64,000 bases of DNA from Escherichia coli (GCF_029227855.1 NZ_CP074356.1); one strand, 5' to 3'; shown: positions 17,411 through 62,676, counted from the stretch's first letter. Numbers and translations are program-made. The notes: generated by a model from the letters alone, not told the origin.

Positions 17411-17496
17411 GACTCAGTCCTGAACCCATCGGTCCCAAATTTGTCCCAGTCAAAAAATAAGGAAGGTACTAATGATGTGTAACTTATTGATTTTAA

Positions 17497-34716: not shown

Positions 34717-34851
34717 TGATGACTCCGGGTAACGATGTCAGGTTAATGGCAAAAGGCGTGCCAATATTTTTTATGTGAATAATCAATAGATTGAAAAACA
34801 GGCGGAAATGACGTTTCCGGTCTGGCGGAAAAAAGCCTGCCGCAGAAAGCA

Positions 34852-47030: not shown

Positions 47031-47066
47031 TTCCTGCGTCACTCCTGCTTCAATCCGCATACGCTA

Positions 47067-47082
47067 GGCAATTACCGTGCCA
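47067..47082 (-). promoter_or_regulatory. Sigma-54 (-24/-12) promoter of the lfgB rod/hook operon
   Basis: Minus strand reads TGGCACGGTAATTGCC, a near-perfect match to TGGCACG-N4-TTGC, about 35 nt upstream of the proposed lfgB start. Confidence 0.55.
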
Positions 47083-47090
47083 TTTTTTAA

Positions 47091-47849
47091 GTGACTGATG
47101 AGAAAGGGTTTATGAGTTTTCAATTTTGCAGGCGGAAGTTTTATTTCCTCCTGGCGCTGGCCTTACCGGGCTACGCCGCCGTCTACCCCGTGCAACACAG
47201 CGCGCGGGAACAAGTCAACGCCCAGGTGCTGAATGCCGCGAGCCAGCAGATTGAATCGCTGGCGCAGCAGCGGCAGTGGCATGACTATCGCTACACCTTT
47301 AAGGTCTACATTCCCTCGCAGATTGCGACCGCTGCGCCCTGTGCTGCGGCACCCGGCGTCACGCTGACGTCGCCTGTGGACATCGCCCTCAACCGCATGA
47401 ACTTCACCGTCAGTTGCCCGCAAAGCTGGCAGATGAACGTGGCGGTGCGCCCGGATGTGCTGGTGCCGGTGGTGATGACAAAGTCACTGGTTGCCCGCGA
47501 TACGCCGCTCACGGCGAATGATGTGGAGCTGAAGCCCTACAACGTCAGCGCCCAGCGTCGCGATGTGTTGATGGAGCTTGATGACGCAATTGGTTTAAGC
47601 AGTAAGCACGCGCTGCAGCCGGGCAGGCCAATCACCAAAGAAGAGCTGGTCTCTCCGGTACTGATCGAGCGCGATCAGCCGGTGATGATTGTTTACCAGA
47701 ACGCGGGGATCACCGCCTCGATGCCCGGCGTGGCGCTGAAAAATGGCCGCAAAGGCGAGATGGTGAAAGTACGTAACGCAAGCAGCCAGCGGGTCATCAG
47801 CGCGATGGTGGCGGAAAGCGGCGTGGTGACAACGGTAAGCGCGGAGTAA
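47091..47849 (+). CDS. lfgA: Flagellar P-ring assembly chaperone (FlgA-like); alternative start at 47112
   Basis: 252 aa with signal peptide; divergent from lfgB. Confidence 0.75.
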   Translation: MTDEKGFMSFQFCRRKFYFLLALALPGYAAVYPVQHSAREQVNAQVLNAASQQIESLAQQRQWHDYRYTFKVYIPSQIATAAPCAAAPGVTLTSPVDIALNRMNFTVSCPQSWQMNVAVRPDVLVPVVMTKSLVARDTPLTANDVELKPYNVSAQRRDVLMELDDAIGLSSKHALQPGRPITKEELVSPVLIERDQPVMIVYQNAGITASMPGVALKNGRKGEMVKVRNASSQRVISAMVAESGVVTTVSAE

Positions 47850-47863
47850 TTTGCGCAGGCGAT

Positions 47864-47871
47864 TAAAGTTT
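47864..47871 (+). promoter_or_regulatory. Candidate sigma-28-type -35 element upstream of lfgM
   Basis: Exact TAAAGTTT about 60 nt upstream of the lfgM start; no matching GCCGATAA-type -10 found at the standard spacing. Confidence 0.25.
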
Positions 47872-47929
47872 TGCCGCCTGTTAACCGCTTTACCGGAGTA
47901 ACACACCTTCAAACAGAGACGAGGTTGCG

Positions 47930-48205
47930 ATGAAAATCACCCCGACTATGCCAGGCAATCGCCCGACAGCCACAACGGCAGGCTCCAGCCAGCCGAGCAA
48001 AACTACGGCGACCACCACGACGCTGAGCGCCGACGACATTACCCAGGCGGGATTGCAGTCTGCCCAGCAAACGCTGAACGACCAGCAAGAGAGCGATATC
48101 GACAGCGATAAAGTGGCGCAAATGCAGGCGATGCTGGCCTCCGGCAGCCTGCAAGTGGACACCGAACAGTTAGCCAGCGACATGCTGAGTTTTTTCCAGA
48201 ACTAA
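47930..48205 (+). CDS. lfgM: Anti-sigma-28 factor (FlgM-like)
   Basis: 91 aa Ser/Thr/Gln-rich protein immediately before the FlgN-like gene. Confidence 0.7.
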   Translation: MKITPTMPGNRPTATTAGSSQPSKTTATTTTLSADDITQAGLQSAQQTLNDQQESDIDSDKVAQMQAMLASGSLQVDTEQLASDMLSFFQN

Positions 48206-48217
48206 GAGGCCGATGAA

Positions 48218-48646
48218 GTGAGTATCCGGTTACAACAGGTGAAGGCGTTGTTGCAGGGAATTCGTGACGATGACGCGCTGTATGATTCCCTGCGCGAACT
48301 TCTCCAGCGTCAGCGGATCTGCATGATTCGCCGCGCCAGCGAAGAGCTGCTGGCGGTAAACGAGGAGATAACCCATCACTATGAGCAGTTGCATGGGCAT
48401 AGCCATCAGCGGCACAGCCTGCTGAAAATGCTTAATGTCAGTGTAAATCGTGACGGTCTGGCGCAGGTTTTTGCCTGGCTTCCGGCGGTACAAAAAGCGG
48501 CAGCACAACAGTTGTGGCAACGCCTTGAGCAAAAAGCGGAACGCTGCAAAGCCTACAACGACAAAAACGGCGAGCTGTTGATTCGCCAGTATGAATTTAT
48601 TCAGTCTTTTTTAGGTAGCGAAGCTGATTTTCTCTATCAGGAATAA
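48218..48646 (+). CDS. lfgN: Flagellar export chaperone (FlgN-like)
   Basis: 142 aa helical protein after the FlgM-like gene. Confidence 0.65.
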   Translation: MSIRLQQVKALLQGIRDDDALYDSLRELLQRQRICMIRRASEELLAVNEEITHHYEQLHGHSHQRHSLLKMLNVSVNRDGLAQVFAWLPAVQKAAAQQLWQRLEQKAERCKAYNDKNGELLIRQYEFIQSFLGSEADFLYQE

Positions 48647-48773
48647 CGCGAATACCTTCCCCCATCGCGGAAATGGATTTTCCGCCTGATTCACAATCCT
48701 TTGTTTTTGATTATAAAAATTCCCGGCACGCTTATTGCACATTCCGCAAAGTAATAAAGACTGGAAGCCACCT

Positions 48774-49703
48774 ATGAGTTTTATTGAATGTTACGAACCG
48801 GAATACGTGCGCAATTTTATGACGCAATATCCCGATTCGCCTTTGTACATCCGCAAGGTGTGGAAAAACGAGATTCGCCAGAGCCTGATGCTGACAGAGC
48901 CAGAAAGCTGCGAAGCGGTGCTCAACGATGCCAGGGCCTTTGATTTACAGCTCACCTACCGCCCGGCGGAAGATAATGCCGCAGAACTCTCCGCGCGCGA
49001 TGCGATAGTAAACCAGGTCATTTTGAGCACCCTTACGCTCCCCGATTTACCCCCGGAGCTTTCACTGTACGCCGTCGGGATTTTGCTCTCCCGCGCCAGC
49101 AAAATGCCGGGCAGAGACGGAGATATTCTTGCCCGCTTGACGACGCTGCCACAGGCGCTGGCCGCTCATGCACAAAAAGGCACGCTACAGGCACAGTTCG
49201 CCCAGTTGCCGCCTGTACCACAGCTGGCGCGCCAACTGGTGACGCTGCTCGGCAGTTGTGCGTTTGACTGGTCGATTCTGCCGGAAAGCCCGCGCAAAAC
49301 TTCCCTGCCGTTGCAGATGCCTTTGCTGGCGCTACATGACGCCAACAGCGAAGCCCTGTTGCAACAGCAGCTTCAGGCACAGTGGCAAACCACCTGGCAA
49401 CAGCATTTTGCCACCGCGCCCTGGATGATGTGTAACTGGCTGATTTACCGCGTTTACCATGAGGTGATTGGACAGGCAGACGGAGCAGATTATTGCCCGC
49501 TGGTGTGCGATTTTTATTTTATCCGCACGTTAATCAGTTTATGGACGCTGGATGGTTCTCCGCTGCGGAAGGAGGATATTTTCGCCCTTTTTGCGGTGTT
49601 TGAACGCTGGCGAGAGAGTGAAAATGCGCTGTTTATTCGCCAGCAAATTCAGTCGTTATGTGCCGCCGACCCGCTGCTTTCAGCGTTTTCGCTGCTGACG
49701 TGA
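48774..49703 (+). CDS. Flag-2-associated hypothetical protein
   Basis: 309 aa from MSFIECYEPE with RBS GGAAG; no recognisable domain; track ORF starts at 48735. Confidence 0.5.
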   Translation: MSFIECYEPEYVRNFMTQYPDSPLYIRKVWKNEIRQSLMLTEPESCEAVLNDARAFDLQLTYRPAEDNAAELSARDAIVNQVILSTLTLPDLPPELSLYAVGILLSRASKMPGRDGDILARLTTLPQALAAHAQKGTLQAQFAQLPPVPQLARQLVTLLGSCAFDWSILPESPRKTSLPLQMPLLALHDANSEALLQQQLQAQWQTTWQQHFATAPWMMCNWLIYRVYHEVIGQADGADYCPLVCDFYFIRTLISLWTLDGSPLRKEDIFALFAVFERWRESENALFIRQQIQSLCAADPLLSAFSLLT

Positions 49704-49720
49704 AGCCGCTCTCGATCGGT

Positions 49721-49751
49721 CCCCTCGCCCCTTCGGGGAGAGGGTGAGGGG
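49721..49751. repeat. GC-rich imperfect palindrome (CCCCTCGCCCC..GGGGAGAGGGTGAGGGG)
   Basis: Shares the GGGGAGAGGGT..GAGGGG motif, in inverted orientation, with the element at 59434-59472. Confidence 0.4.
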
Positions 49752-49809
49752 CAAAGCACGCACAGCCCTCCTTACCCATCAAATTAACCCCTTAACTCAC
49801 CTAAACACC

Positions 49810-52281
49810 ATGCCAACACCAACCCTCATCAAAACACTCGCCACTCACCGCGAAAAACCGTTCGTCAGCGTCGTCACGCCCACATGGAACCGTAGCGCAT
49901 TCCTGCCGTACCTGCTCTATATGTACCGCTATCAGGATTACCCGGCAGACCGCCGCGAACTGGTCATCCTCGACGACTCGCCGCAAAGCCATCAACACAT
50001 CATCGACCGCCTGACCAATGGCACACCGGAAGCCTTTAACATCCGCTATATTCATCACCCGGAAAAACTGCCACTGGGCAAAAAACGCAACATGCTCAAC
50101 GAACTGGCGAGCGGCGAATACATCCTCTGCATGGACGATGACGACTACTACCCGGCAGATAAAATCTCTTACGCCATCGCCATGATGCAAAAACACCGGG
50201 CGCTCATCTCCGGTTCCGACCAGATCCCCATCTGGTACAGCCACATCAATCGCATCTTCCAAAGCCGCAGCTTTGGCTCACATAACATCCTCAACGGCAC
50301 CTTTTGCTATCACCGTAACTACCTGAAAAAGCACCGTTACGACGATGATTGTAATTTAGGCGAAGAGAAAAGTTTCACCAACAATTTCAGCGTTAACCCG
50401 CTACAACTGCCCGGCGAGCGCACGATTCTGTGTATCTCGCACAGTCACAACACCTTTGATAAAGATTTTATTCTCGGGGCTAGCACGCCAGTAAACGCGG
50501 CGCTTACGGATATCGTCCGCGATCCGCTGCTGCGCAATGCTTATCTGAGTCTGCATAACGCCACTCATCACCAGGCGATCGATCAGGTCGTACTGATCAA
50601 TCTGGATAAACGCCCGGATCGCTTACAGCAGATCCGTGAAGAACTCACATTGCTGTATATTCCGCCTGAGAAGATCACCCGCCTTGCCGCCAGTGAAAAT
50701 GAAAACGGTCAACGGGGTCGCCGCCAGTCACACTTGCAGGCGCTGCGCCTGGCGCAACAGCACGGCTGGCAAAACTACCTGCTGCTGGAAGATGACGCAG
50801 TTATTCTCAAGCAGGAGAAACATATTCAGGTACTGAACACGCTGCTCGCGAGCCTGGCGAAAATTCCCTGGCAGGTGATGATCCTTGGCGGCGAAATTTC
50901 GCAGGGAACGATGCTAAAAAGTTTGCCGGGGCTGGTGCACGCGCGGGACTGCCGCAAAGTGTGCGCTTATCTGGTGAACAGTCGCTACTACCCGCAACTG
51001 GCGCAGCAGATGAGCCACAATGAACACTCGCTGGAAGACGGCTGGCAGCCGCTGCTACGCGCCGACAAATGGCTGGCCTGTTACCCGAGCCTTAGTTATC
51101 AGCGACCGGGCTTTAGTGATATCGAGAAAAAAGTGACCGACAACATTGCTCACTATTTCAATAAGTTACCCGTTATCACAAAGCCATCCGCATTACCCAT
51201 CGCCGACACCATCGGCTTTTTTATGGAAACCTCCTTCCACTACGCGCTCTACCGCCCAATCATCACTGCTCTACAGGTGCAGGGGCAGAGCTGCACGCTG
51301 GTGATCAATGACCGCGTGTTTAAACCGTTTCTTGATGAGATGCTGGAAACACTGAAAAACATCGACGATCCGCAGCTTAAAGGAATGCGCTTATCTGAAA
51401 TGCAGGCACACGGTCAGCGGGTGAAATGCCTGGTCAGCCCCTACCACACGCCCGCGCTCAATGGCCTGGCAGCGGTGAACGTTCGCGCCATGTACGGCTT
51501 AGCCAAAGAGACGTGGAACCACGCCGACTGGAACCGTTTTTATCAACGCATTTTGTGTTACAGCCACTACAGCCAGCGGGCGCTGGCGCATTTCGGCAAT
51601 GCAAAAGCAGTCGGCAACCCGCGCTTCGACGCCTGGCATAACGGCACGTTTGCCCGCACTCTGCCGGAAAATATTCAACCCGATTCCCGTAAACCTACGG
51701 TGCTCTATGCCCCCACGTTTGGCGCATTAAGCTCCCTGCCCCACTGGGCAGAAAAATTAGGCCGCTTAAGTGGCAATGTGAATCTGATTTGCAAACTGCA
51801 CCACGGCACCTGCTCGCGCCCGGAAGAAGCGGCATCGCTGGCCCTGGCGCGCAGGCATTTAAAACAGCGCACCGACTCCGCCCGCCACACGCTGGCGCTG
51901 CTGGCAAAGGCCGATTACGTGCTGACCGATAACAGCGGCTTTATTTTCGATGCTATTCACGTTGATAAGCGGGTGATCCTGCTCGACTTTCCGGGCATGG
52001 CAGCGTTGCTCGACGGTGAGAAAAGTTACTCCACGCCGGAGAGCGCCGATCAGCAAATCCGCGAAATATTGCCGGTGGCTCATGATATGGCAGAGTTGCG
52101 TTACTTGTTGTCAGAGGCGTTTGACTGGGGGGCGGTGCAGGCGCGGCTTACGAAGATTCGCCATCACTATTGCGATGCGTTTATGGATGGCAAAGCGGGA
52201 GAACGGGCGGCGATGGTGATTGTGGAGGCGCTGGCGGACAAGGAATCGTCAGGGATATGTCGATATAATTCGATTTTTTAA
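49810..52281 (+). CDS. Multidomain glycosyltransferase: GT2 domain, GT25-like domain, and C-terminal CDP-glycerol glycerophosphotransferase (TagB/TagF-like) domain
   Basis: GT-A signature VSVVTPTWNR...ILDDSP with a DDDDYY acidic motif; middle LINLDKRPDRL; C-terminal VLYAPTFG (TagF-type YAPT motif); track ORF starts at 49744 inside the GC-rich repeat. Confidence 0.65.
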   Translation: MPTPTLIKTLATHREKPFVSVVTPTWNRSAFLPYLLYMYRYQDYPADRRELVILDDSPQSHQHIIDRLTNGTPEAFNIRYIHHPEKLPLGKKRNMLNELASGEYILCMDDDDYYPADKISYAIAMMQKHRALISGSDQIPIWYSHINRIFQSRSFGSHNILNGTFCYHRNYLKKHRYDDDCNLGEEKSFTNNFSVNPLQLPGERTILCISHSHNTFDKDFILGASTPVNAALTDIVRDPLLRNAYLSLHNATHHQAIDQVVLINLDKRPDRLQQIREELTLLYIPPEKITRLAASENENGQRGRRQSHLQALRLAQQHGWQNYLLLEDDAVILKQEKHIQVLNTLLASLAKIPWQVMILGGEISQGTMLKSLPGLVHARDCRKVCAYLVNSRYYPQLAQQMSHNEHSLEDGWQPLLRADKWLACYPSLSYQRPGFSDIEKKVTDNIAHYFNKLPVITKPSALPIADTIGFFMETSFHYALYRPIITALQVQGQSCTLVINDRVFKPFLDEMLETLKNIDDPQLKGMRLSEMQAHGQRVKCLVSPYHTPALNGLAAVNVRAMYGLAKETWNHADWNRFYQRILCYSHYSQRALAHFGNAKAVGNPRFDAWHNGTFARTLPENIQPDSRKPTVLYAPTFGALSSLPHWAEKLGRLSGNVNLICKLHHGTCSRPEEAASLALARRHLKQRTDSARHTLALLAKADYVLTDNSGFIFDAIHVDKRVILLDFPGMAALLDGEKSYSTPESADQQIREILPVAHDMAELRYLLSEAFDWGAVQARLTKIRHHYCDAFMDGKAGERAAMVIVEALADKESSGICRYNSIF

Positions 52282-52355
52282 ACATGTCGTTGGAATACGT
52301 TTATGCCATCGACATGTTTTAGGGATATGTCGAAAAAACGCGATTTTTTAAACAT
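52251..52355. repeat. Two 35-nt direct repeats flanking a hairpin at the 3' end of the glycosyltransferase gene
   Basis: AGGGATATGTCGA...CGATTTTTTAAACAT at 52251-52285 and 52321-52355; between them the inverted repeat AAACATGTCG...CGACATGTTT. Confidence 0.5.
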
Positions 52356-52410
52356 ATTTAACATAGCCAAACGGCAGACGGCATCATCTTCTCTCACCGC
52401 GGGAATTAAA

Positions 52411-52815
52411 TCAGTAGGTGGCTGATTTACCCCTAATCACCTCAATGATCCCCGTCGTCGATACCGATGGCGTACGGGGAAAATAGACCACCTCACAGAC
52501 ACACGAGAAATCGTCAAACTTCCCCGCCCAGTCATCGCCCATCACCAAAATATCCGCACCGTACCCCCGCAAATACTCCGCTTTCTGCTCCAGCGATTCC
52601 TCCAGAAATACGCCCTCCACGCACGCCAGCCCGGCGATAATCGCCATGCGGTCATCCTGATGGTAAACCGGTGCCCTGCCCTTTTTGGCGATGTTCAAGG
52701 CATCGGACGATACGCCGACCAGCAACCGTTCGCCCAGCGTGCGGGCGCGTTGTAAAAGGCGCAGATGACCGACGTGAAACACATCAAAGGTGCCGAAGGT
52801 GATGACCGTTTTCAT
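52411..52815 (-). CDS. Glycerol-3-phosphate cytidylyltransferase-like protein (TagD family)
   Basis: 134 aa; HxGH nucleotidyltransferase motif FGTFDVFHVGH; directly downstream of lfiJ on the same strand. Confidence 0.7.
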   Translation of the reverse strand: MKTVITFGTFDVFHVGHLRLLQRARTLGERLLVGVSSDALNIAKKGRAPVYHQDDRMAIIAGLACVEGVFLEESLEQKAEYLRGYGADILVMGDDWAGKFDDFSCVCEVVYFPRTPSVSTTGIIEVIRGKSATY

Positions 52816-52817
52816 CG

Positions 52818-53252
52818 CTACTCCGCTAATTTATGCCGTAGCCAGCACTGAACGGCAATGTCATCCACCGCTTTTTGCGCTTTCGCCGTGGCGCTTTCCT
52901 GCTGCTCGCGGCGTTTGTCGTCCAGCGTCAGGACCACCACTTTCTCTTCGCACGCCGCCGCCGTCAGGTTTTTCTGCATTCGCGTGGCTTTGATGTTAGC
53001 CAGCGTTTTTTCCTGTTCCTGCCAGGCGATCACCTTGCGCAGGGTGCCTTTGTAGCCGCTGACGTTTTTCAGTGATTCCACCGACGCCGCCGCGCCCGCA
53101 GACGTTTTCTCTACCAGGTAGCCTAACGCCTTGATATTGTTGTCATAGCCCGCGCAGATCTGTTTTTGCTTTGCCAGCTCGACAGTTTTGTCTTTGACCG
53201 ATTTATCCCGCAGGCGCTGCAACTGCGCCAGGGTGTCGATGATTTGTCGCAT
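52818..53252 (-). CDS. lfiJ: Flagellar export protein (FliJ-like)
   Basis: 144 aa coiled-coil protein after the FliI-like ATPase. Confidence 0.7.
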   Translation of the reverse strand: MRQIIDTLAQLQRLRDKSVKDKTVELAKQKQICAGYDNNIKALGYLVEKTSAGAAASVESLKNVSGYKGTLRKVIAWQEQEKTLANIKATRMQKNLTAAACEEKVVVLTLDDKRREQQESATAKAQKAVDDIAVQCWLRHKLAE

Positions 53253-53254
53253 GG

Positions 53255-54592
53255 TTACTGTTCTGCCTTTTTGGCACCAGGAAAGAGGATTTGCAGGCGG
53301 CTTTGCACCAGTTCCAGGGAGGCGGGTTCGCGCATCTCCTGGCGCAAAAATCGCTCGATAGCCGGGAACATTTTTACCGCTTTGTCGACGCTGGCGTCGG
53401 CACCTGCCACGTAGCCGCCGAGCGGGATCAGCGGTTTGATCTCCATATACGCGGCGTAGTTTTGCTTTAACGCACGGGCGGATTGCTGATGTTCCAGGCT
53501 GGTCACCTGATTCATGCAGCGGCTGATCGACTGGCCGATATCAATGGCCGGATAGTGCCCCGCTTCCGCCAGTTTGCGGGTTAATACGATATGCCCGTCC
53601 AGCACCGCACGGGCGCAGTCGACAATCGGATCTTGCTGGTCGTCGCCTTCCGCCAGCACGGTGTAGATTGCGGTCATCGATCCCGTGCTTTCGTTGTTGC
53701 CTGCGCTTTCGACCAGCTTGGGGATCATGCCGAATGCCGATGGCGGATAACCTTTGGTGGCGGGCGGTTCGCCGAGCGAGAGGGCAATTTCCCGCTGCGC
53801 CATCGCGTAGCGGGTCAGGGAATCCACCAGCAGTAAAACGTGATGCCCACGGTCGCGAAACCAGGCGGCGATGGAGTGGCACAGTTCGGTGGCTTTCAGG
53901 CGCATCAGCGGCGATTCATCGGCGGGCGCGACAACAACGATAGACTTTGCCAGCCCGTCCGCGCCCAGCGAGTGGTCGATAAACTCTTTCACTTCGCGCC
54001 CGCGTTCGCCAATCAGCCCGACCACCACAATGCCGGCTTTGGTCTGGCGGGTGATCATCCCCAGCAGCACGCTTTTCCCGACGCCACTGCCCGCCATCAG
54101 CCCGACGCGCTGGCCTTTGCCGATGGTCAGTAGGCCGTTGATCGCTTTCACGCCCACGTCCAGCGGTTCGTCCACTGAACGGCGGGTTAAGGGATTAACC
54201 GAGGGCGGTAGCGGCGGCAGAAGGTCGTTGCCGTTCAGGCGGCCTTTGCCATCCAGCGGTTCGCCGAGGCCATTCACCACGCGGCCTAACCAGCTTTCGC
54301 CAATCAGGATGTCGTGGGCTTTTTCTTCCGGGAAGACGCGCGCCCCCGCCATCAGGCCGACCGGCTGTTTAAAGGGCATTAAGTAGGTGATATCGCGATT
54401 AAAGCCCACGGCCTGCGCGTCGATAAGCGTGTGATTGGCGCTTTCGATGCGGCACAGCTGCCCGGTCATTAGCGGGCAGCCGACACTCTCCAGCAGGATG
54501 CCGTTTAGGCGCACCAGCCGCCCGGCGACGCGGGCCAGCGGGATCGACTCCAGCGAGCGCAGCGCGTTATCGAAAGCGGAAAAATCACTCAC
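53255..54592 (-). CDS. lfiI: Flagellum-specific ATPase (FliI-like)
   Basis: 445 aa; Walker A GSGVGKS; F1-ATPase-like fold. Confidence 0.9.
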   Translation of the reverse strand: MSDFSAFDNALRSLESIPLARVAGRLVRLNGILLESVGCPLMTGQLCRIESANHTLIDAQAVGFNRDITYLMPFKQPVGLMAGARVFPEEKAHDILIGESWLGRVVNGLGEPLDGKGRLNGNDLLPPLPPSVNPLTRRSVDEPLDVGVKAINGLLTIGKGQRVGLMAGSGVGKSVLLGMITRQTKAGIVVVGLIGERGREVKEFIDHSLGADGLAKSIVVVAPADESPLMRLKATELCHSIAAWFRDRGHHVLLLVDSLTRYAMAQREIALSLGEPPATKGYPPSAFGMIPKLVESAGNNESTGSMTAIYTVLAEGDDQQDPIVDCARAVLDGHIVLTRKLAEAGHYPAIDIGQSISRCMNQVTSLEHQQSARALKQNYAAYMEIKPLIPLGGYVAGADASVDKAVKMFPAIERFLRQEMREPASLELVQSRLQILFPGAKKAEQ

Positions 54593-55295
54593 CCTGAGAC
54601 TCCGGCGTTAGGGTTTCTTTCAGTGCGGTCATGCACTGTTCCAGGCGATGCTCGCAGCCGATATCCAGTTCTGATTTATCAGTGATCACCCGGCATTCCC
54701 CCGGCGGCAGATCCGGCGAAGGCGTCAGCCCCCATTCACTGACCTTTTCCGGCACCGCGTCGCGCAGGCGGTTAAATTCTTCCGTGCTCAGCATTACTTG
54801 CAGGGTCTCCGGCATCGCCGGGAAGGCCGCCAGTGCCTCTTCCACCAGCGCCAGCAACTGCGTCGGTTGCAGCGCCAGTTCGCAGCGGATCACCTGGCGG
54901 GTGACTTTTTCCACCAGTTGCAACAAATCTTCCCGCTGTTTACGTTCGATATGGGCGAGGAAGTCGTTCACTTTTCCGGTGATGGCTTCCAGCGGCTGCG
55001 CCGCCTCAACAAACTGTTTGCGCCCTTCATGCTGCCCGGCGAGGCTGCCTTCGGTGTAACCCTGGCGTCGCCCCTCGGCAAAACCTTGCTGATGACCTTC
55101 GCTAAAGCCCTGCTCCTGACCTTCGGTCATTCCCTGAGCAAAGCCTTTTTGCAGCCCTTCCTGAAAACCGTCCATCAACTGGCGCTGGTAATCGGCGGCG
55201 CTGATGCTGGCGGTGAGCGGTTCTCCGGTCACCGCACGCTGGCGCGGCGGGAAACGATGCAGGCGATAGCGCCCGCGCAGTGTTTCAATGGTCAT
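54585..55295 (-). CDS. lfiH: Flagellar assembly protein (FliH-like)
   Basis: 236 aa; overlaps the lfiI start. Confidence 0.7.
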   Translation of the reverse strand: MTIETLRGRYRLHRFPPRQRAVTGEPLTASISAADYQRQLMDGFQEGLQKGFAQGMTEGQEQGFSEGHQQGFAEGRRQGYTEGSLAGQHEGRKQFVEAAQPLEAITGKVNDFLAHIERKQREDLLQLVEKVTRQVIRCELALQPTQLLALVEEALAAFPAMPETLQVMLSTEEFNRLRDAVPEKVSEWGLTPSPDLPPGECRVITDKSELDIGCEHRLEQCMTALKETLTPESQGE

Positions 55296-55298
55296 GGG

Positions 55299-56309
55299 TT
55301 ACTCCGCCGTCTGTTCCGCAAAGAGCTGTAGCTGAATTTCGCCCGCCTCTTCCAGTTCACGGGCGATGCCCATGATTTCGCGGCGGATCTGTTCGATACG
55401 GCTGACCGGTACCGGCCCCAGACGCGCGGTAATGGCTTCCAGTTGCTGCGCCTGACGTTTTGGCATTACCGCGTAAATCGAGCGGCGCAGCAGGGCTTCG
55501 GTGCCTTTCAGCGCCACCGCCCAGTCTTCCATCGGCACTTCGTCAAGCAGACGTCGACGCACCTCTTCGTTCTGGCGGCTGAGGATAAAGAAGTCGTACA
55601 TCTCATCCTGAAGCTGCTCCAGCACCTCTTCGTCGCGCTCGCGCATCTGGTCGAGGATCACCTGCTGGTTGCCCTGGAAGCGGTTGACGATATCCGCCGC
55701 CTGTTTGATGCCTTTCACCTTCGAGCCGTGTTCCGAAAGCACCGACAGGCCGCGTTCGATCAGCCTGTCCAGTTCATCCACCACGTCGCGGTTGACGTCG
55801 TTGAGTTTCGCCACCCGATAGAGAATTTCGTTTTGCACCGATTCATTGAGATACGAGAGCACCGCCGCCGAGATTTCCGGCGTCAGAAACGCGAGGAACA
55901 CCGCCTGCAATTGCAGATGCTCTTCGGAAATCAGCATCGCTAACTGGCGCGGTTCCACCCATTGCAGGCGCGCCATCCGCGAGCGGATCTCATCGCCGTA
56001 GATGCCATTGATCACGCTGCTGGCGATCTCGGTGCCGAGGGCTTTGTTAAGAATGCCCTGCAACATGGATCGCGATGCGCCGTTGATCCCGCTCTGTTCG
56101 CGGAACTCGTCAAAGAAGTTATTGATCACTTTGCGCGCCATGCTGGTTTTAACGCCGGAAAGCCGCGCCATGTTTTCGCTCAGGCGCACCACTTCTTCGC
56201 GGCTGAGTTTTTGCATCACCGTCGCCGCCGCTTCTTCGCCAAGGCACAGCAGCAGGATCGCCGCCTGTTCCAGGTAGCTGTTGCTCTTATTTGTTGTCAA
56301 TTCGCTCAT
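55299..56309 (-). CDS. lfiG: Flagellar motor switch protein (FliG-like)
   Basis: 336 aa; FliG middle and C-terminal domains. Confidence 0.85.
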   Translation of the reverse strand: MSELTTNKSNSYLEQAAILLLCLGEEAAATVMQKLSREEVVRLSENMARLSGVKTSMARKVINNFFDEFREQSGINGASRSMLQGILNKALGTEIASSVINGIYGDEIRSRMARLQWVEPRQLAMLISEEHLQLQAVFLAFLTPEISAAVLSYLNESVQNEILYRVAKLNDVNRDVVDELDRLIERGLSVLSEHGSKVKGIKQAADIVNRFQGNQQVILDQMRERDEEVLEQLQDEMYDFFILSRQNEEVRRRLLDEVPMEDWAVALKGTEALLRRSIYAVMPKRQAQQLEAITARLGPVPVSRIEQIRREIMGIARELEEAGEIQLQLFAEQTAE

Positions 56310-57933
56310 TGCTGGTGATCCATTGTCTGAGAACTTCGGCTACGCGATCGGTGTCGCTCATGGCCAGTTTTTGCAGGAACTCGAGTTTCACTTCGAGGCC
56401 GGAACTCTGGGACGGCAGGCTGTCATCGCCGGGCAGCGACGGCAGGTCGACGTTTTTGCGCTCCTCTTCCGGCATGGCAATCCACGGTTCGCTGACAGCT
56501 TCCGGTTCTGGTGTGATAACCGGCGCACGCACCGCCGTCAGGCGTTTCATTACCGGGCGCACCACAAAGAACAGCAACAACAGCGCCAGCAGGCCGCAGC
56601 CAATCAGGCGTACCCAGGCCAGCACGCTGTCATCTTTCCACAGCGGAATAATTGGTTCGACCGGCACCGCCTGCGGGACAAAGTTAAGCAGCGATAAGGT
56701 GAGATTGTCACCGCGCTGGACGTCGATCCCGGCGGCATTGTTCAGCAACGCGGTCAGTTGCGCAGTCTGCTCCGGCTTCCAGTTTTTCAGCGCCGGGGCG
56801 TTTTGATTGAGCACCACCGCCACGTTGAGGCGTTTCACCGCAAAACCAGGATGCTGAATATGCTGGACGCTGCGGTCGTAAGAGTAATCGCGCTTGCTTT
56901 CGCTGTGTTTGGATAACGCTTCCGGTGAGCGGTTTTCTTCCGTACCGTTGGTCATCTGATTCGCCGCAACTGGCGGACGGTTGCTGAGTGAACCGGGCAC
57001 GCCCATCGCCACCTGATTGGTGTCGCTGTCCAGCACGCTCTCTTCGCGGTTGATTTTCGGCGCGTCGCCGTAGTGTTCCTGGGTTTCGTCGATGGTACTG
57101 AGGTCGAGATCCGGCATCACGCTGACGCGGTAATTCCCCGTACCAACCAGCGAATCCAGCACGTTCGCCACGCTGGCGCGGGTTTTGTCCTGAATATCTT
57201 TGAGGATCTGATCGCGTTTACGGGTTGCGGCAGAAACCGCCTCGCCTGCGCCAATGCCGTCGGTCAGCAGATTTCCCGCCTGATCGACGACGCTGACTTT
57301 GCTGGCCTGTAGCCCCGGAATACTGCCGGACACCAGATGCATAATGGCGTTGACCTGGTCCATATTCAGCTTCGCGCCATAGTGCAGGCGCACCACTACC
57401 GAGGCGCTGTTTTGTGGCTCATCGCTGACCACAAACGAGCTTTCTTCGTTGAGCGCCAGATGCACCCGTGCGCTCTCCACCGCGTCCAGCGACATAATGC
57501 TCTGCGCCAGCTCCCCTTCGAGGCTGCGTTTGTAGCGCACGTTCTGCACGAACTGGCTGCTGCCGAGCACTTCGTCTTTGTCCATCAGCTCGTAGCCGCT
57601 GGGCAATATCGCCTGCACACCTTTGGCGGCAAGGGTCATGCGCGTTTTCGACAGTTCACCTTCCGGCACCAGTATCTGCCCGCTCTGCGGGTCGATGCGA
57701 TAGCTGAGCTTTTCGCCGTCCAGCACGGTGACAATCTGCGACACGGGCAGATTTTCCTGGCGTCCGTAGAGCGAGACGTAGCCGCGATTACCGGTCCACA
57801 GCACACTAACGATAATCGCCGTTGCCGCCACGGCAAGCCCCACTCCCGCCATCAACGCCCAGCGTTTGTTATCTGCGAGGCGCAGTCGAAACGCCGGAAA
57901 CGCCTGGGTTAACTTCTTTATTTGTGCATTCAT
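56287..57933 (-). CDS. lfiF: Flagellar MS-ring protein (FliF-like)
   Basis: 548 aa; two TM segments flanking a large periplasmic region. Confidence 0.85.
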   Translation of the reverse strand: MNAQIKKLTQAFPAFRLRLADNKRWALMAGVGLAVAATAIIVSVLWTGNRGYVSLYGRQENLPVSQIVTVLDGEKLSYRIDPQSGQILVPEGELSKTRMTLAAKGVQAILPSGYELMDKDEVLGSSQFVQNVRYKRSLEGELAQSIMSLDAVESARVHLALNEESSFVVSDEPQNSASVVVRLHYGAKLNMDQVNAIMHLVSGSIPGLQASKVSVVDQAGNLLTDGIGAGEAVSAATRKRDQILKDIQDKTRASVANVLDSLVGTGNYRVSVMPDLDLSTIDETQEHYGDAPKINREESVLDSDTNQVAMGVPGSLSNRPPVAANQMTNGTEENRSPEALSKHSESKRDYSYDRSVQHIQHPGFAVKRLNVAVVLNQNAPALKNWKPEQTAQLTALLNNAAGIDVQRGDNLTLSLLNFVPQAVPVEPIIPLWKDDSVLAWVRLIGCGLLALLLLFFVVRPVMKRLTAVRAPVITPEPEAVSEPWIAMPEEERKNVDLPSLPGDDSLPSQSSGLEVKLEFLQKLAMSDTDRVAEVLRQWITSNERIDNK

Positions 57934-57937
57934 AGGG

Positions 57938-58279
57938 TTAGATCGACATACTCATCAGATCGTTAAATCCGGTGGCGATTTTGTTGCGCACCTGCACCAG
58001 CGCGGAGAACGAGAGCGACGCCTGCTGGCTGGCGATCATCGCACCTGCCAGGTCATCACTTTTGCCCGTGTCGACAGCCGTTTGCTGCTGCTCTGCCACC
58101 TGCTGGAACTGGTCTACGTGACCGAGCGCGCCACTCATAATGCGGTTAAACGAAACGTCAGGATTGGTGGAACTGAAGGTCATGGCGGGCAGCACCGGCG
58201 CCTGGGCGTTGGCCTGCATCCGCTGCACGTCCTGCATGATTTGCGCCTGCATGGTGCTGTTGATTGTGGTAATGCTCAT
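57938..58279 (-). CDS. lfiE: Flagellar hook-basal body protein (FliE-like)
   Basis: 113 aa; first gene after the regulator. Confidence 0.75.
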   Translation of the reverse strand: MSITTINSTMQAQIMQDVQRMQANAQAPVLPAMTFSSTNPDVSFNRIMSGALGHVDQFQQVAEQQQTAVDTGKSDDLAGAMIASQQASLSFSALVQVRNKIATGFNDLMSMSI

Positions 58280-58293
58280 TTTTAACTTCCGGG

Positions 58294-59280
58294 TCAGGAG
58301 AAAACTTCGATACCTTGCTTGCGCATGGAGGCCAGTCGATAGCGCAGTGCGCGCGGGGTAATGCCTAACAGGTTGGCGATTTTGCTGCGGTTGCCCTGAT
58401 ATTTACGCATCAGGTCGGCGATATATTGATATTGCGCGCTTCGTCCGTGCTGGCCTAAATCGCAGGTTTCAGCAATGTGGACGGCGGGCTGAACAGGCCA
58501 TTGCAGTTCGCTGCGGTCGGCAACGTCCGTTTCCGGCAGGCCTAAGGCGTCCGGGTAAATTACGCCGTCGCGGTTTAAAATCATTCCCCGCTGAATGGCG
58601 TTCTCCAGCTGGCGCACGTTGCCGGGCCAGCGGTAATTGAGCAGCGCCCGGCGGGTAGATTCTGAAAGGGTGATATTTTTCACCAGCACCGTGGAGTATT
58701 TTTTAATAAATGACTCTGCCAGCGGAATAATATCGTTCAGACGTTCACGCAGCGGCGGCATGGTAATAGGGATTACCGCAAGACGATAATAGAGATCTTC
58801 ACGAAAACGCCCTTCGGCGACTTCCTGCTCAAGGTTTTTATTGGTACAGGCAATCAGGCGAAAATTGAGTTTAATTTGTCGGTTGCTGCCTAATCGCTCA
58901 ACCTGCTGTTCCTGCAATACGCGTAATATTTTGACCTGTAGCGCCAGCGGCATATCGCCAATTTCATCGAGCAATAAGGAGCCGTTATTCGCCAGTTCCA
59001 TTTTTCCTGGCACGCTGGCAATTGCGCCGGTAAATGCACCTTTGTCGTAGCCAAATAAGGTAGATTCCAGCATATTTTCCGGGATCGCCGCGCAGTTCAC
59101 GCCGACATAGGGTGCGCTTTCATTTTCACCAAAGGCTACGGTGTGAATATATTTTGCCACGCACTCTTTGCCCGCGCCGGTTTCGCCCTGAATGAGCACC
59201 GGCACGTTAAAGGCGGCGACACGCTTTGCCAGAGTAAAAGCGTTAATGCTGGAAGCGGCAGTTGCAATAAGTTCAGACAT
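58294..59280 (-). CDS. lafK: Sigma-54-dependent transcriptional activator (AAA+ domain plus C-terminal HTH; no receiver domain in the called ORF)
   Basis: Walker A GETGAGKE, GAFTGA motif, C-terminal Fis-type HTH; the ORF starts directly at the AAA+ domain. Confidence 0.8.
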   Translation of the reverse strand: MSELIATAASSINAFTLAKRVAAFNVPVLIQGETGAGKECVAKYIHTVAFGENESAPYVGVNCAAIPENMLESTLFGYDKGAFTGAIASVPGKMELANNGSLLLDEIGDMPLALQVKILRVLQEQQVERLGSNRQIKLNFRLIACTNKNLEQEVAEGRFREDLYYRLAVIPITMPPLRERLNDIIPLAESFIKKYSTVLVKNITLSESTRRALLNYRWPGNVRQLENAIQRGMILNRDGVIYPDALGLPETDVADRSELQWPVQPAVHIAETCDLGQHGRSAQYQYIADLMRKYQGNRSKIANLLGITPRALRYRLASMRKQGIEVFS

Positions 59281-59433
59281 AGGGTGAACGATATAAGTAG
59301 CGACAGAAAACAGGATGTTCTGAAGCGTATCACCGGCGGGATTAACAAGTTCGAATTAAACGATAATAAAAATATTATTTGATGGTAAACAATGAGTTAG
59401 ATATTAATACTGTTAATTGCGACATCTGTGATG

Positions 59434-59472
59434 CCCCCTCACCCTAACCCTCTCCCCGGATGGGGCTAGGGG
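59434..59472. repeat. GC-rich imperfect palindrome (CCCCCTCACCCTAACCCTCTCCCC..GGGGCTAGGGG)
   Basis: Inverted copy of the motif at 49721-49751, in the lafK-lfiM divergent intergenic region. Confidence 0.4.
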
Positions 59473-59652
59473 ACAGACCGCAGACTGATTGGCGAAAATC
59501 ACTCCCATTAAGCAATTAATCGATTAATTATTTTTTCATCCTATTAATAATTTGCCCCTTTCACTCCCCCTCTATTTAATACCTCACCTTGTGTCACTGC
59601 CGGATTTGCGTGCACAAAATCGCCCATACCATTACAGCAGAGAAAGTAAGCC

Positions 59653-60504
59653 ATGCTGAAGTACAGTAAAACGCCAGGCATCTTTAAATTAGAAGGTAAT
59701 CGGCTCGGACGCCCCTACCATCGCCTGCCGACCCTGTTTACGGGGAATTTTGACGTGATTGATTCGCATCTGGGCAGCTACTTTCTCAAAAAGCATCGCA
59801 GCAATATCACCTTAAAAAAGATTGGCTGCGAAATGGATATTATTAATAAAAACGCCGAACTGATGGTTTCCCAGGTCGGGCATCTGGCGTTTGATATTGA
59901 TCGCTCCTTGCTGTTAATGCTGCTGGGCAATTTTTATGGTCTGGAGTCGTCTCTTGAAGAGGCGAAAGCCCATAACGGGTTGCCGACCAAAACCGAAACG
60001 CGTTTAAAAAACCGTCTGGCGCTGGATATCTGCACGCTGATATTTAATCTGCAAACCTCCGGTATTGCGCTGAAATTAAAACTGGACAGCAGCACGGTGA
60101 TTACCCACTGGGCGTATCAATTAACCTTTACCCTTGCGGACGATGAAGAGAGCAGTTTTCGTATTTTGCTCGACGACGCCCACACCGATTTTATTTTGAA
60201 TCTGATCCGCCACAGCGAGCACAGTAAACCGCAGCAGGTGGCGAAATCCGTTAATAAACCGGCCCTGATTAAAGAAATCATCCGCTCCCTGCCGCTGACC
60301 CTGAACGTCAAAATCGCCGAACTGTCGCTGAATGTCGCGGATCTCACGCAGATAAAAGCCGGGGATATTTTACCCATCTCGCTGGGAGAAACGTTCCCGG
60401 TGGCGATTGGGCAATCTGAATTATTTAGCGCCCTGATTGTGGAAGACAAAGACAAACTGTTTTTGTCGGAGCTGGCGGGCAAAAATGAGAATAGCCATGA
60501 GTAA
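59653..60504 (+). CDS. lfiM: Flagellar motor switch protein (FliM-like, short form)
   Basis: 283 aa; first gene of the fliMNPQR-flhBA-type operon. Confidence 0.75.
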   Translation: MLKYSKTPGIFKLEGNRLGRPYHRLPTLFTGNFDVIDSHLGSYFLKKHRSNITLKKIGCEMDIINKNAELMVSQVGHLAFDIDRSLLLMLLGNFYGLESSLEEAKAHNGLPTKTETRLKNRLALDICTLIFNLQTSGIALKLKLDSSTVITHWAYQLTFTLADDEESSFRILLDDAHTDFILNLIRHSEHSKPQQVAKSVNKPALIKEIIRSLPLTLNVKIAELSLNVADLTQIKAGDILPISLGETFPVAIGQSELFSALIVEDKDKLFLSELAGKNENSHE

Positions 60505-60868
60505 GCAAGAAGATATTTTAGCCGGGGATTTTGGCCTCACCGATGAAGTTGCGCCTGTCGCGAAATCCGCCGACGCTGAAACGCTGGTCACCCGCCTGGA
60601 AGACCGCTTTTCCGACTCGATGACGCTGTTGAAACGCATTCCGGTGACCTTAACGCTGGAAGTGTCGTCGGTGGAAATTATGTTAGCCGACCTGCTAAAC
60701 ATCGACGACGACACGGTGATTGAGCTGGATAAACTCGCCGGGGAGCCGCTGGATATTAAAGTGAACAATATCCTGCTGGGCAAAGCAGAAGTGGTGGTGG
60801 TCAACGAGAAGTACGGCCTGCGCGTGCTGGAGTTTAACACCCGCGATATCAACGACCTGGCACCATGA
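60497..60868 (+). CDS. lfiN: Flagellar motor switch protein (FliN-like)
   Basis: 123 aa from MSKQEDIL; SpoA-type C-terminal domain; start overlaps the lfiM stop; track ORF starts at 60437. Confidence 0.75.
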   Translation: MSKQEDILAGDFGLTDEVAPVAKSADAETLVTRLEDRFSDSMTLLKRIPVTLTLEVSSVEIMLADLLNIDDDTVIELDKLAGEPLDIKVNNILLGKAEVVVVNEKYGLRVLEFNTRDINDLAP

Positions 60869-61617
60869 AACGCCGCACTCAACTGACGCTCGGCCTTGGG
60901 CTGCTGGCGCTTGCGCCGCTGGCGTTAGCCCAGGGTGGCGATATTGCGCTGCTTAACGTGGTCACCCACGGCAACACTCAGGAGTACAGCGTCAAAATCC
61001 AGGTGCTGATTCTGATGACCCTCGTCGGTTTGCTGCCGACGATGGTGCTGATGATGACCTGCTTTACGCGCTTTATTATCGTGCTGTCGCTGCTGCGCCA
61101 GGCGCTGGGGCTGCAACAAACGCCGCCAAACCGCATTCTGATTGGTATTGCGCTCTCCCTCACCATGCTGGTGATGCGCCCTATTTGGCTCAATATTTAC
61201 GACCACGCGGTGGTGCCGTTTGAAAACGATCAGATTACCCTAACCGATGCGTTAAACACCGCCGCGACGCCGCTGAAACGCTTTATGCTGGCGCAGACCG
61301 ACAAAAAAGCGATGGCGCAAATCATGACCATCGGCGGCGCGAAGGGCAATGCCGCCGACCAGGATCTCACGATTGTGGTGCCTGCCTATGTGTTGAGCGA
61401 ACTGAAAACCGCTTTCCAGATTGGCTTTATGATTTACATCCCGTTTCTGGTTATCGACCTGATTGTCGCCAGCGTACTGATGGCGATGGGGATGATGATG
61501 CTGTCGCCGCTGATTGTTTCGCTGCCCTTTAAACTGATGCTGTTTGTGCTGATCGACGGCTGGTCGCTGACCATCGGCACGCTCACCACCAGCATTCGCG
61601 GGCTGGGGCTGGGCTGA
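60865..61617 (+). CDS. lfiP: Flagellar export apparatus protein (FliP-like)
   Basis: 250 aa membrane protein with signal sequence. Confidence 0.9.
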   Translation: MKRRTQLTLGLGLLALAPLALAQGGDIALLNVVTHGNTQEYSVKIQVLILMTLVGLLPTMVLMMTCFTRFIIVLSLLRQALGLQQTPPNRILIGIALSLTMLVMRPIWLNIYDHAVVPFENDQITLTDALNTAATPLKRFMLAQTDKKAMAQIMTIGGAKGNAADQDLTIVVPAYVLSELKTAFQIGFMIYIPFLVIDLIVASVLMAMGMMMLSPLIVSLPFKLMLFVLIDGWSLTIGTLTTSIRGLGLG

Positions 61618-61893: not shown

Positions 61894-62676
61894 ATGCGCA
61901 CAAGCGACGTTACGCAACTGATGGATCTGGCGCTGGGGCTGTGGTTTCCCTTCGTGCGCATTATGGCGTTTCTGCGCTATGTGCCGGTGCTGGATAACAG
62001 CGCCCTGACCGTGCGCGTGCGGATTATTTTGTCGCTGGCGCTGGCAATCATCATCACGCCGTTGATCCCCCATCCCATTCCCCACGATCTGCTTTCACTC
62101 AACAGCCTGATCCTGACGGTGGAGCAAATTTTATGGGGCATGTTGTTCGGGCTGATGTTTCAGTTTCTGTTTCTCGCGCTACAACTGGCCGGACAAATTC
62201 TCTCGTTCAATATGGGGATGAGCATGGCGGTGATGAACGACCCGAGCAGCGGCGCATCGACCACCGTGCTGGCGGAGTTAATCAACGTCTATGCGATCCT
62301 GCTGTTTTTTGCCATGGACGGGCATCTGCTGCTGGTAAGCGTGCTGTATAAGGGCTTCACCTACTGGCCGATTGGTAACGCGCTGCATCCGCAAACCCTG
62401 CGCACCATCGCGCTGGCCTTTAGCTGGGTGCTGGCGTCCGCATCACTGCTGGCGCTGCCGACCACCTTCATCATGCTGATTGTGCAGGGCTGCTTTGGCC
62501 TGCTCAACCGCATCGCGCCGCCGCTGAACCTCTTTTCGCTCGGCTTTCCCATCAACATGCTGGCGGGGCTGGTTTGCTTTGCCACCCTGCTCTACAACCT
62601 GCCGGATCACTATCTGCATCTGGCGAATTTTGTGTTGCAGCAACTCGACGCGCTGAAAGGTCACTATGGCGGATAG
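61894..62676 (+). CDS. lfiR: Flagellar export apparatus protein (FliR-like)
   Basis: 260 aa multi-TM protein from MRTSDVTQL; track ORF starts at 61843. Confidence 0.8.
   Translation: MRTSDVTQLMDLALGLWFPFVRIMAFLRYVPVLDNSALTVRVRIILSLALAIIITPLIPHPIPHDLLSLNSLILTVEQILWGMLFGLMFQFLFLALQLAGQILSFNMGMSMAVMNDPSSGASTTVLAELINVYAILLFFAMDGHLLLVSVLYKGFTYWPIGNALHPQTLRTIALAFSWVLASASLLALPTTFIMLIVQGCFGLLNRIAPPLNLFSLGFPINMLAGLVCFATLLYNLPDHYLHLANFVLQQLDALKGHYGG

Follow-up and report, generated by a model that had tools for sequence, protein, structure and literature searches.

Two BoxC repeat copies at independently variable intergenic sites in the Flag-2 flagellar locus of Escherichia coli

Two palindromic elements in the Flag-2 locus

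The window, which is the whole 64-kb stretch of Escherichia coli DNA analysed here, carries a Flag-2 flagellar locus (Table 1), and two GC-rich palindromic elements lie in its spacers. Read directly from the sequence, the first (site 1) is CCCCTCGCCCC-TTC-GGGGAGAGGGTGAGGGG on the + strand at 49721-49751, and the second (site 2) is CCCTAGCCCC-ATCC-GGGGAGAGGGTTAGGGTGAGGGG on the - strand at 59472-59435. They are the only two copies of the palindrome in the 64 kb. The coordinates and inverted orientation given by the first-pass annotation hold, as does its remark that site 1 is without the TTAGGG block; open reading frames and annotation place both elements in spacers, as it had also proposed.

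Site 1 begins 18 nt past the TGA stop codon (49701-49703) of its upstream neighbour, the lysine-N-methylase gene, and ends 59 nt before the ATG (49810) of its downstream neighbour, the glycosyltransferase gene. The methylase gene belongs to the Flag-2 variable region VR1, a known integration hot spot (PMC6993521). Site 2 lies inside the 372-nt spacer from which lafK (start 59280, - strand) and lfiM (start 59653, + strand) are transcribed divergently, 154-192 nt upstream of the lafK start codon and 181-219 nt upstream of that of lfiM. Between the two sites, the genes lfiJ-lfiE form the conserved core of Flag-2 cluster 1.

A candidate sigma-54 site precedes the methylase gene (48724-48739); provided that it is active, site 1 would be transcribed inside a methylase-glycosyltransferase unit. 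Across the window the sigma-54 pattern is not in excess (19 found versus 27.5 expected from shuffles), and a search for it in the lafK-lfiM spacer returned no site. Three matches with one mismatch sit just upstream of flagellar genes.

Table 1 Features at and around the two elements (positions counted from the first letter of the window)
Feature	Coordinates	Strand	Basis
Sigma-54-type promoter-like site CGGCACGCTTATTGCA, 1 mismatch, upstream of methylase gene	48724..48739	+	Pattern scan, consensus match only
Lysine-N-methylase gene (FliB/LafV-like)	48774..49703	+	RefSeq annotation of 99.9% identical locus
Extended repeat unit, site 1	49708..49765	+	Type-A 5' flank GCTCTCGATCGGT, core, 3' flank CAAAGCACGCACAG
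BoxC/TMECO type-A copy with 6-nt deletion (TTAGGG), site 1	49721..49751	+	Sequence, full-length same-site copies, K-12 Table 1 of PMC4666352
GT2-family glycosyltransferase gene, 823 aa	49810..52281	+	Pfam PF00535, E = 8e-18; annotation
Cytidylyltransferase-like (TagD-like) gene, last VR1 gene before lfiJ	52411..52815	-	Pfam PF01467, E = 2e-19
lfiJ-lfiI-lfiH-lfiG-lfiF-lfiE (FliJ/I/H/G/F/E homologues)	52818..58279	-	ORFs, annotation, synteny in 42 loci
lafK, sigma-54-dependent activator	58294..59280	-	Pfam PF00158, E = 7e-64; HTH_8 domain
Allele-specific cassette, ~117 nt, BoxC plus unique flanks, site 2	59400..59516	.	Alignments with REP-pair (BIME) alleles
Full-length BoxC/TMECO type-A copy, loop 2 = TTA, site 2	59434..59472	-	Sequence, regex scan, 23 MG1655 copies
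lfiM (FliM-like), divergent from lafK	59653..60504	+	Annotation

Both elements are members of the BoxC family

Through the sequence string GGGAGAGGG, we traced the elements in the literature to BoxC, a dispersed intergenic repeat of E. coli that has also been published as PIT (potential intrastrand triplex), TMECO and HPGQ (PMC4666352, PMC5100583). The BoxC unit spans about 37 nt, or about 50-60 nt when its conserved flanks are counted. A C-rich block is followed, after a short loop, by the G-rich block complementary to it; a second loop, which is TTA in type A and CCG in type B, then leads to the third block, again G-rich. The consensus is CCCTC(G/T)CCC(C) - loop - GGG(G)AGAGGG - TTA or CCG - GGGTGAGGG(G). 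Its core is the HPG1 motif GGGAGAGGGTTAGGGTGAGGG of PMC5100583.

Site 2 satisfies all three blocks of this consensus, reading CCCTAGCCCC ATCC GGGGAGAGGG TTA GGGTGAGGGG (59472-59435, - strand). Compared with MG1655 TMECO no. 23, it carries one substitution, which falls in block 1 (CCCTAGCCCC), and one extra loop base, giving a first loop of 4 nt. Site 1 retains blocks 1 and 2 and the TGAGGGG tail and is missing TTAGGG, so that it departs from the full consensus and corresponds to type A minus TTAGGG (Table 1 of PMC4666352). Undeleted copies found at this position in E. coli TUM14759 and E. whittamii show that site 1 is a deletion derivative of a BoxC member. Its flanks are also family sequence: the 5' flank (GACCGATCGAGCAC on the other strand) recurs beside a type-A copy at hrpB-mrcB in K-12, the 3' flank resembles CATCAGCGCGCAC, which follows a type-B copy in K-12, and other lineages have both flanks in their site-1 modules. 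The flanks of site 2 are divergent, and BLAST coverage by other BoxC copies ends at about 59419-59483.

The 10-mer GGGGAGAGGG is by itself not over-represented (3 matches in the window versus 2.0 expected), which would fit a chance match of GC-rich sequence. The significance is thus carried by the full-length element: a 23-nt pattern with up to two mismatches had one match in the window and none in 100 shuffles. Moreover, both sites fit a catalogued multi-copy family over about 30-37 nt, and site 1 does so in its flanks too, which makes coincidence vanishingly improbable. An Rfam scan of 47000-61000 at E <= 1 gave two matches only, both at chance level and to eukaryotic families.

The first-pass annotation had offered dispersed intergenic repeats as one reading, and this proved right. 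MG1655 has 23 BoxC copies. A 125-nt query around site 2 matched 5399 of 5426 complete E. coli genomes at a median of 13 places, and a 115-nt paired module matched 4977 of the 5426 at a median of 14 places, with only 41 of its 62,998 places (<0.1%) on plasmids. The motif is therefore widespread at unrelated sites and almost all of them are chromosomal; the listed matches elsewhere were all free of annotated features. The site-2 query had 10 places in JNEC-KY178, which is 99.99% identical to positions 1-49868 of the window. Two copies in 64 kb exceed the genome density (10-23 per ~5 Mb; Poisson P ~0.01-0.03 by our own estimate), so BoxC may be somewhat enriched locally in the Flag-2 region.

The likeness to BoxC thus extends from the three-block sequence, with the type-A loop TTA at site 2, to the strictly intergenic position, the roughly 10-25 chromosomal copies per genome, the inverted type-A/type-B pairs with a conserved spacer found at site 1 in sister lineages, and the degenerate or deleted copies and local variability already published. 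The differences are not in kind: the site-1 copy is a 6-nt deletion derivative which, by its sequence, keeps the hairpin only, and site 2 has the block-1 substitution and the 4-nt first loop. We conclude with high confidence that both elements are separate copies of this already known repeat. We know of no protein partner, transposase or regulatory role of BoxC, and of no mechanism by which it spreads. The RefSeq records that we examined leave the BoxC copies without annotation.

The intervening 9.7 kb is collinear across Flag-2 loci

The first-pass annotation had also suggested that the two copies might be what a past rearrangement or insertion involving the intervening 9.7 kb left behind. 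That the copies are inverted, are the sole two in 64 kb and include one within the VR1 hot spot would fit ends or scars of an inversion, an insertion or a composite-transposon-like movement of the block. However, the window from 49000 to 60000 is collinear in 1260 E. coli genomes, most of which have at site 2 not BoxC but a REP pair. Similarly, the order lfiPNM, lafK-lfiEFGHIJ, VR1, lfgNMA is identical, and gene orientation constant, in 42 Enterobacterales Flag-2 loci spanning Escherichia to Yersinia, Tatumella and Rosenbergiella. BoxC is present in few of these 42; most are without it, and the order also holds in those that have none at either site. We found no variation in presence or orientation of the segment with junctions at the repeats. 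Nor does the block fit a known module, since it takes in both variable VR1 genes and the conserved cluster-1 operon; the two copies also differ in phylogenetic spread. Movement of the block is therefore very improbable, and the two observations that the first-pass annotation had said would refute it, a motif widespread at unrelated sites and a collinear segment, have both been made. The intervening 9.7 kb is not a unit, and the copies are not a pair bounding a moved or inverted segment. The rearrangement idea holds only on a local scale, each site having small changes of its own that range from tens of nt to about 130 nt. An unannotated BoxC copy can be taken for mobile DNA or for a rearrangement, and the importance of the identification lies mainly in correct annotation.

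Site 1 varies in copy number, orientation and length

The methylase-glycosyltransferase spacer holds one, two or three BoxC copies depending on the lineage, and is also occupied in Escherichia sp. E1V33, E. whittamii and three Pseudocitrobacter loci. The copy in TUM14759 and E. whittamii is single and undeleted. In the window, a lineage-specific 6-nt deletion (TTAGGG) has removed loop 2 and one G-tract, a loss that may have come about by slippage between tandem AGGGT repeats.

In sister lineages, site 1 has a paired module, about 140 nt long, with inverted repeats at its outer ends (CTGTGCGCGC... / ...GCGCGCACAG). The module of NY1601 is the reverse complement of that of P. vendiensis (alignment score 195, versus 46 in the same orientation). 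The module appears to have been inverted where it stands, through recombination between these repeats; the sequence flanking it is the same in both orientations, and in-place inversion thus fits better than re-insertion. With its outer inverted repeats and its two orientations at one site, the paired module resembles MITE-like elements such as ERIC/IRU. It differs from these in that the outer flanks are unchanged after the flip and that inspection of the alignments by eye revealed no evident target-site duplication at either site; the window, moreover, has a single BoxC copy at each site.

Site 2 is occupied by BoxC or by unrelated sequence

In the lafK-lfiM divergent control region, the site-2 slot has a conserved AT-rich block on either side. 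Of the 1284 E. coli genomes that have Flag-2, 57 contain BoxC in this slot, and the other E. coli Flag-2 loci examined (~96%) have a REP pair there; in Citrobacter it contains unique sequence and in Pseudocitrobacter faecalis a 6-unit REP array. A search of all E. coli genomes for a BoxC-free allele, using the joined unique flanks, gave 57 matches, all containing BoxC. No second locus with these flanks was found in the E. coli collection, and they were absent from 80 of 80 loci of other species.

REP/BIME elements are, like BoxC, short, GC-rich, palindromic, dispersed and intergenic, and in most Flag-2 loci a REP pair takes up exactly this slot, but their sequence is unrelated. REPs are served by a dedicated transposase family (RAYT/TnpA-REP), and proteins that partner with them are known; we know of no BoxC counterpart to either. 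We considered and rejected REP identity for both elements, neither of which has the REP consensus (a GCCGGATG...CATCCGGC-type palindrome ending in GGCCTAC): site 2 has no similarity to the REP pair aligned in the same slot in other E. coli, and site 1 was judged from its sequence alone, the REP regex scan having covered the spacers of other species only. The observed alleles point to turnover between BoxC and REP occupancy, probably by replacement; an assignment of the ancestral allele rests on parsimony across a recombining locus.

Structure and possible effects in cis

When single-stranded, the BoxC unit can form a hairpin and, according to published work, an intrastrand triplex or G-quadruplex in vitro. 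On its lafK-sense strand, site 2 has four tracts of three or more G; site 1 has three such tracts. In folding calculations of Watson-Crick pairing only, site 2 did better than shuffled sequence (z = -2.0 for one strand and -2.6 for the other) and site 1 did not (z = -0.2). The Watson-Crick hairpin of site 1 is kept (CCCCTCGCCCC / TTC / GGGGAGAGGGG...). Site 1 should have lost its capacity for a triplex or G-quadruplex, keeping only the hairpin.

One or both copies might have an effect in cis. The hairpin of site 1, transcribed into RNA, would then stabilise or attenuate a methylase-glycosyltransferase transcript, and site 2 would serve the master regulator lafK and lfiM as a hairpin/G-quadruplex switch within their divergent control region. 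Consistent with such a role, site 1 lies between co-oriented genes downstream of the sigma-54-like site and its hairpin survives the deletion, site 2 has the G-tracts and the favourable fold, and Kaplan et al. (PMC5100583) proposed regulatory or terminator roles for the family. However, scans for intrinsic terminators (a GC-rich hairpin with a T-run) and for sigma-70-like promoters found none at either element, where the hairpin is followed by CAAAGCAC at site 1 and by CATCACAG at site 2 on the lafK-sense strand. The Rfam result and the fold of site 1 also argue against function, and a required role for site 2 is hard to reconcile with what other Flag-2 loci have in its place: in about 96% of the E. 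coli loci an unrelated REP pair, and in Citrobacter unique sequence. Earlier PIT studies, summarised in PMC4666352, found neither promoter or terminator activity nor an effect in vivo, Holder et al. (PMC4666352) found no link to gene class or gene distance, and our literature search found no newer functional work on BoxC elements. An effect in cis is accordingly unlikely, and we infer that the copies lack function.

Less likely again is that competition between BoxC and REP for the site-2 slot, together with an invertible site-1 cassette, makes BoxC a driver of heritable variation in lateral-flagella expression. Were this so, the BoxC allele would give lafK, the master regulator, a sequence able to form a G-quadruplex or hairpin on its sense strand, about 150-190 nt upstream, and could thereby alter Flag-2 expression relative to the REP allele, and the paired site-1 module could be an invertible MITE-like cassette inside a flagellin-modification operon.

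Local instability at two independent sites

Site 1 is occupied across Escherichia and Pseudocitrobacter and site 2 in 57 of 1284 E. coli loci, a distribution from which the two copies appear to have had different, independent histories. The two sites are independent hot spots of polymorphism, both of them small. Both copies sit in spacers that tolerate insertion, and their visible effect is local instability. Raised variability and degenerate copies have been reported for TMECO loci, and our findings agree with this published link to local instability and add no new principle. The Flag-2 locus provides two clean natural examples of structure-prone repeats changing over time, with one slot holding BoxC, a REP pair, a REP array or unique sequence according to lineage.

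Two copies of a dispersed repeat

By sequence, the GC-rich palindrome is present at both positions described in the first-pass annotation, and the TTAGGG block is absent from site 1, as reported there. The full-length pattern had no occurrences in 100 dinucleotide-preserving shuffles, and a regex scan found no further copies in the 64 kb; the 10-mer core alone was at chance level (3 matches versus 2.0 expected). Relative to the genome-wide density, two copies within 10 kb are a mild excess (estimated Poisson P ~0.01–0.03). Two papers retrieved in a literature search for the sequence itself identify the family. Holder et al. (2015) renamed the motif, earlier called BoxC and PIT, as TMECO, with 23 copies in MG1655, all TMECO copies intergenic, a second loop that is either TTA (type A) or CCG (type B), and an inverted type-A/type-B pair at five sites (PMC4666352). 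In Kaplan et al. (2016) this core, GGGAGAGGGTTAGGGTGAGGG, appears as a hairpin/G-quadruplex motif, with the fabI downstream region among its sites (PMC5100583). Compared with TMECO copy no. 23 of MG1655, site 2 has one substitution and one additional loop base; site 1 is a type-A element minus six bases, and direct alignment showed that the sequences flanking site 1 recur beside the BoxC copies of the K-12 hrpB–mrcB pair. Sites 1 and 2 are two independent copies of an already known dispersed repeat.

Features discussed in the text
Feature	Position	Strand	Sequence or remark
Site 1	49721-49751	+	CCCCTCGCCCC-TTC-GGGGAGAGGGTGAGGGG
Site 2	59472 to 59435	-	CCCTAGCCCC-ATCC-GGGGAGAGGG-TTA-GGGTGAGGGG
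Lysine-N-methylase gene	48774-49703		neighbour of site 1
GT2 glycosyltransferase gene	49810-52281		other neighbour of site 1
lafK	58294-59280	-	site 2 in divergent spacer with lfiM
lfiM	59653-60504	+	site 2 in divergent spacer with lafK
AT-rich block beside site-2 slot	59360-59399		…GATAATAAAAATATTATT…AAACAATGAGTTA
AT-rich block beside site-2 slot	59517-59560		TTAATTATTTTTT…ATTAATAATTTGC
Site-2 cassette	59400-59516		~117 nt; BoxC plus flanks found nowhere else in E. coli
Sigma-54-type promoter-like site	34748-34763	-	one mismatch
Sigma-54-type promoter-like site	47067-47082	-	one mismatch
Sigma-54-type promoter-like site	48724-48739	+	one mismatch

The first-pass annotation had read the elements either as dispersed intergenic repeats or as traces of a past rearrangement or insertion. 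Genome-wide searches bear out the former reading, the motif being widespread. A 115-nt query comprising the paired module of NY1601 had matches in 4,977 of 5,426 complete E. coli genomes (median 14 places per genome), and only 41 of 62,998 places were on plasmids. A 125-nt query around site 2 matched 5,399 genomes (median 13 places; 10 in JNEC-KY178) and, because matches elsewhere cover only ~59419–59483, that stretch is the repeated unit. Similar elements also occur in Pseudocitrobacter, other Escherichia species and some Pseudomonas loci. A further inverted BoxC pair (CCG-loop copy +, TTA-loop copy −) lies at 296–382 of L023, a Pseudocitrobacter vendiensis locus, ~4.3 kb past lfiP, a position that probably places it near the lfhA end of Flag-2; in the window's orientation it would fall beyond position 64000.

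The bracketed segment is not a unit

The region 49000–60000 is collinear in 1,260 E. coli genomes. From species-representative genomes we retrieved 80 loci that encode LfiG relatives; 42 of these are Enterobacterales loci, and 16 window proteins were mapped onto those 42. The order and orientations of lfiP-N-M, lafK-lfiE-F-G-H-I-J, VR1 and lfgN-M-A were identical in all 42, from Escherichia and Citrobacter to Yersinia, Tatumella and Rosenbergiella, and the content of VR1 was the only variable part. BoxC is wholly absent from most of these loci. With the motif widespread and the segment collinear, the reading as a trace of a rearrangement is refuted. VR1, the variable region between lfiJ and lfgN (De Maayer et al., PMC6993521), is made up here of the methylase, glycosyltransferase and TagD-like genes. 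We also rejected the bracketed 9.7 kb as an evolutionary module, because it takes in both VR1 cargo genes and the conserved cluster-1 operon. The copies at sites 1 and 2 differ in phylogenetic spread, and each spacer accepts other fillers too.

Among the fetched records, L029, titled Chryseobacterium sp. 18061, is probably mislabelled or contaminated: its contig carries an Enterobacteriaceae-type Flag-2 locus whose gene layout is that of L028, a Citrobacter isolate of the same project, with similar protein identities.

Turnover at site 1

Throughout the Escherichia-type Flag-2 clade the methylase–glycosyltransferase spacer contains BoxC, in varying states. E. whittamii and E. coli TUM14759 have one full type-A copy. 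The window and JNEC-KY178 have the same copy shortened by a 6-nt deletion, and the window's spacer is matched at ≥99% identity by only three records. NY1601, ATCC 8739 and Escherichia sp. E1V33 carry an inverted pair (type A −, type B +), the opposite inverted pair is found in Pseudocitrobacter faecalis and P. vendiensis, and a Pseudocitrobacter MAG has three copies. About 616 genomes match with a spacer 72 nt longer, like that of NY1601, and we infer that they carry the type A −/type B + pair.

The modules of NY1601 and P. vendiensis are reverse complements of each other (alignment score 195, versus 46 in the same orientation). Since the sequence on either side of the module has not changed and the apparent breakpoints lie within the outer inverted repeats CTGTGCGCGC / GCGCGCACAG, the paired module appears to have flipped in place rather than to have been re-inserted. 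As the 6-nt loss falls between the tandem AGGGT repeats within GAGGGTTAGGGTG, slippage between these repeats may have produced it. By sequence, the window's copy retains the hairpin; having only three G-tracts and no second loop, it should have lost triplex/quadruplex formation.

A hypervariable slot between lafK and lfiM

Site 2 lies in a 372-nt spacer, and its version in the window is found in only 57 of the 1,284 E. coli genomes matching the lafK–lfiM region. The same slot holds a classical REP pair (BIME) in the other genomes aligned, among them an ST131 strain, an APEC strain, Escherichia sp. E1V33, Escherichia sp. MOD1-EC7003, P. vendiensis and a 'Citrobacter' MAG. The P. faecalis spacer (L008 6127–7014) is 888 nt long and holds six tandem REP pairs in the slot, that is, 12 REP units with ~100-nt periodicity. 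In Citrobacter species the blocks ...AAACAATGAGTTA and TTAATTATTTTTT... enclose ~90 nt of unique, unrelated sequence.

Flanking the slot on both sides, these AT-rich blocks are conserved between Escherichia and Citrobacter (comparison loci L012, L013 and L031). They probably represent the true control sequences of lafK and lfiM; scans for sigma-70 and sigma-54 consensus sequences found none in either block. No BoxC-free version of the site-2 allele was found in the E. coli collection: a query made of the flanks alone returned these 57 genomes again, each with BoxC between the flanks. By parsimony, the REP state would be older than BoxC at site 2 in this clade, an order made uncertain by recombination. 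The slot evidently accepts whatever fills it, and this speaks against a required function for the site-2 copy.

Functional signals

Neither a T-run after either element, nor a sigma-70-like promoter at either site, nor an Rfam match was found. Site 1 folds no better than shuffles (z = −0.2) and site 2 somewhat better (z = −2.0 and −2.6 on the two strands). The three sigma-54-like sites lie just upstream of the fliD-like, lfgB-like and methylase genes, and LafK/sigma-54 control of these units would fit them; across the window the pattern is not enriched over shuffles. As a consensus match, the site upstream of the methylase gene suggests that site 1 may be transcribed within a methylase–glycosyltransferase unit. 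Earlier PIT studies, as summarized in PMC4666352, detected neither promoter nor terminator activity, nor any in vivo effect, and Holder et al. reported TMECO without a link to gene class and with local variability higher than at control sites (PMC4666352). The polymorphism at sites 1 and 2 fits this published picture, to which only descriptive details of repeat turnover are added here.

Genomic context

The window is an E. coli chromosomal region running through ecpE, the pao genes, proBA, phoE and dinB to the Flag-2 lateral-flagella locus; strain JNEC-KY178 is 99.99% identical to positions 1–49868. Relative to strain JNEC-KY178 (L001 3811–6297), otherwise 99.9% identical, the window's glycosyltransferase gene is shorter by 15 nt (5 codons). 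Its last codons and TAA stop are spanned by the first of two 35-nt direct repeats (52251–52285 and 52321–52355; 89% identity, 70 nt apart), the second lying in the convergent spacer ahead of the TagD-like gene. Because other lineages have 1.2–5.7 kb of extra sequence between these genes, the repeats could be the scar left in VR1 by a deletion or recombination. flhB, annotated as frameshifted in JNEC-KY178, is an intact 379-aa ORF in the window (62666–63805). Finally, an island at ~11100–17600, beside a tRNA-Thr gene by the JNEC-KY178 annotation (L086 11138–17606), carries an AbiEii/AbiEi toxin–antitoxin pair, an ash-family gene and an integrase remnant, and an RNA-directed DNA polymerase gene overlapping a carbon–nitrogen hydrolase (nitrilase-family) gene; the whole has the appearance of a defence island that includes a reverse-transcriptase system.
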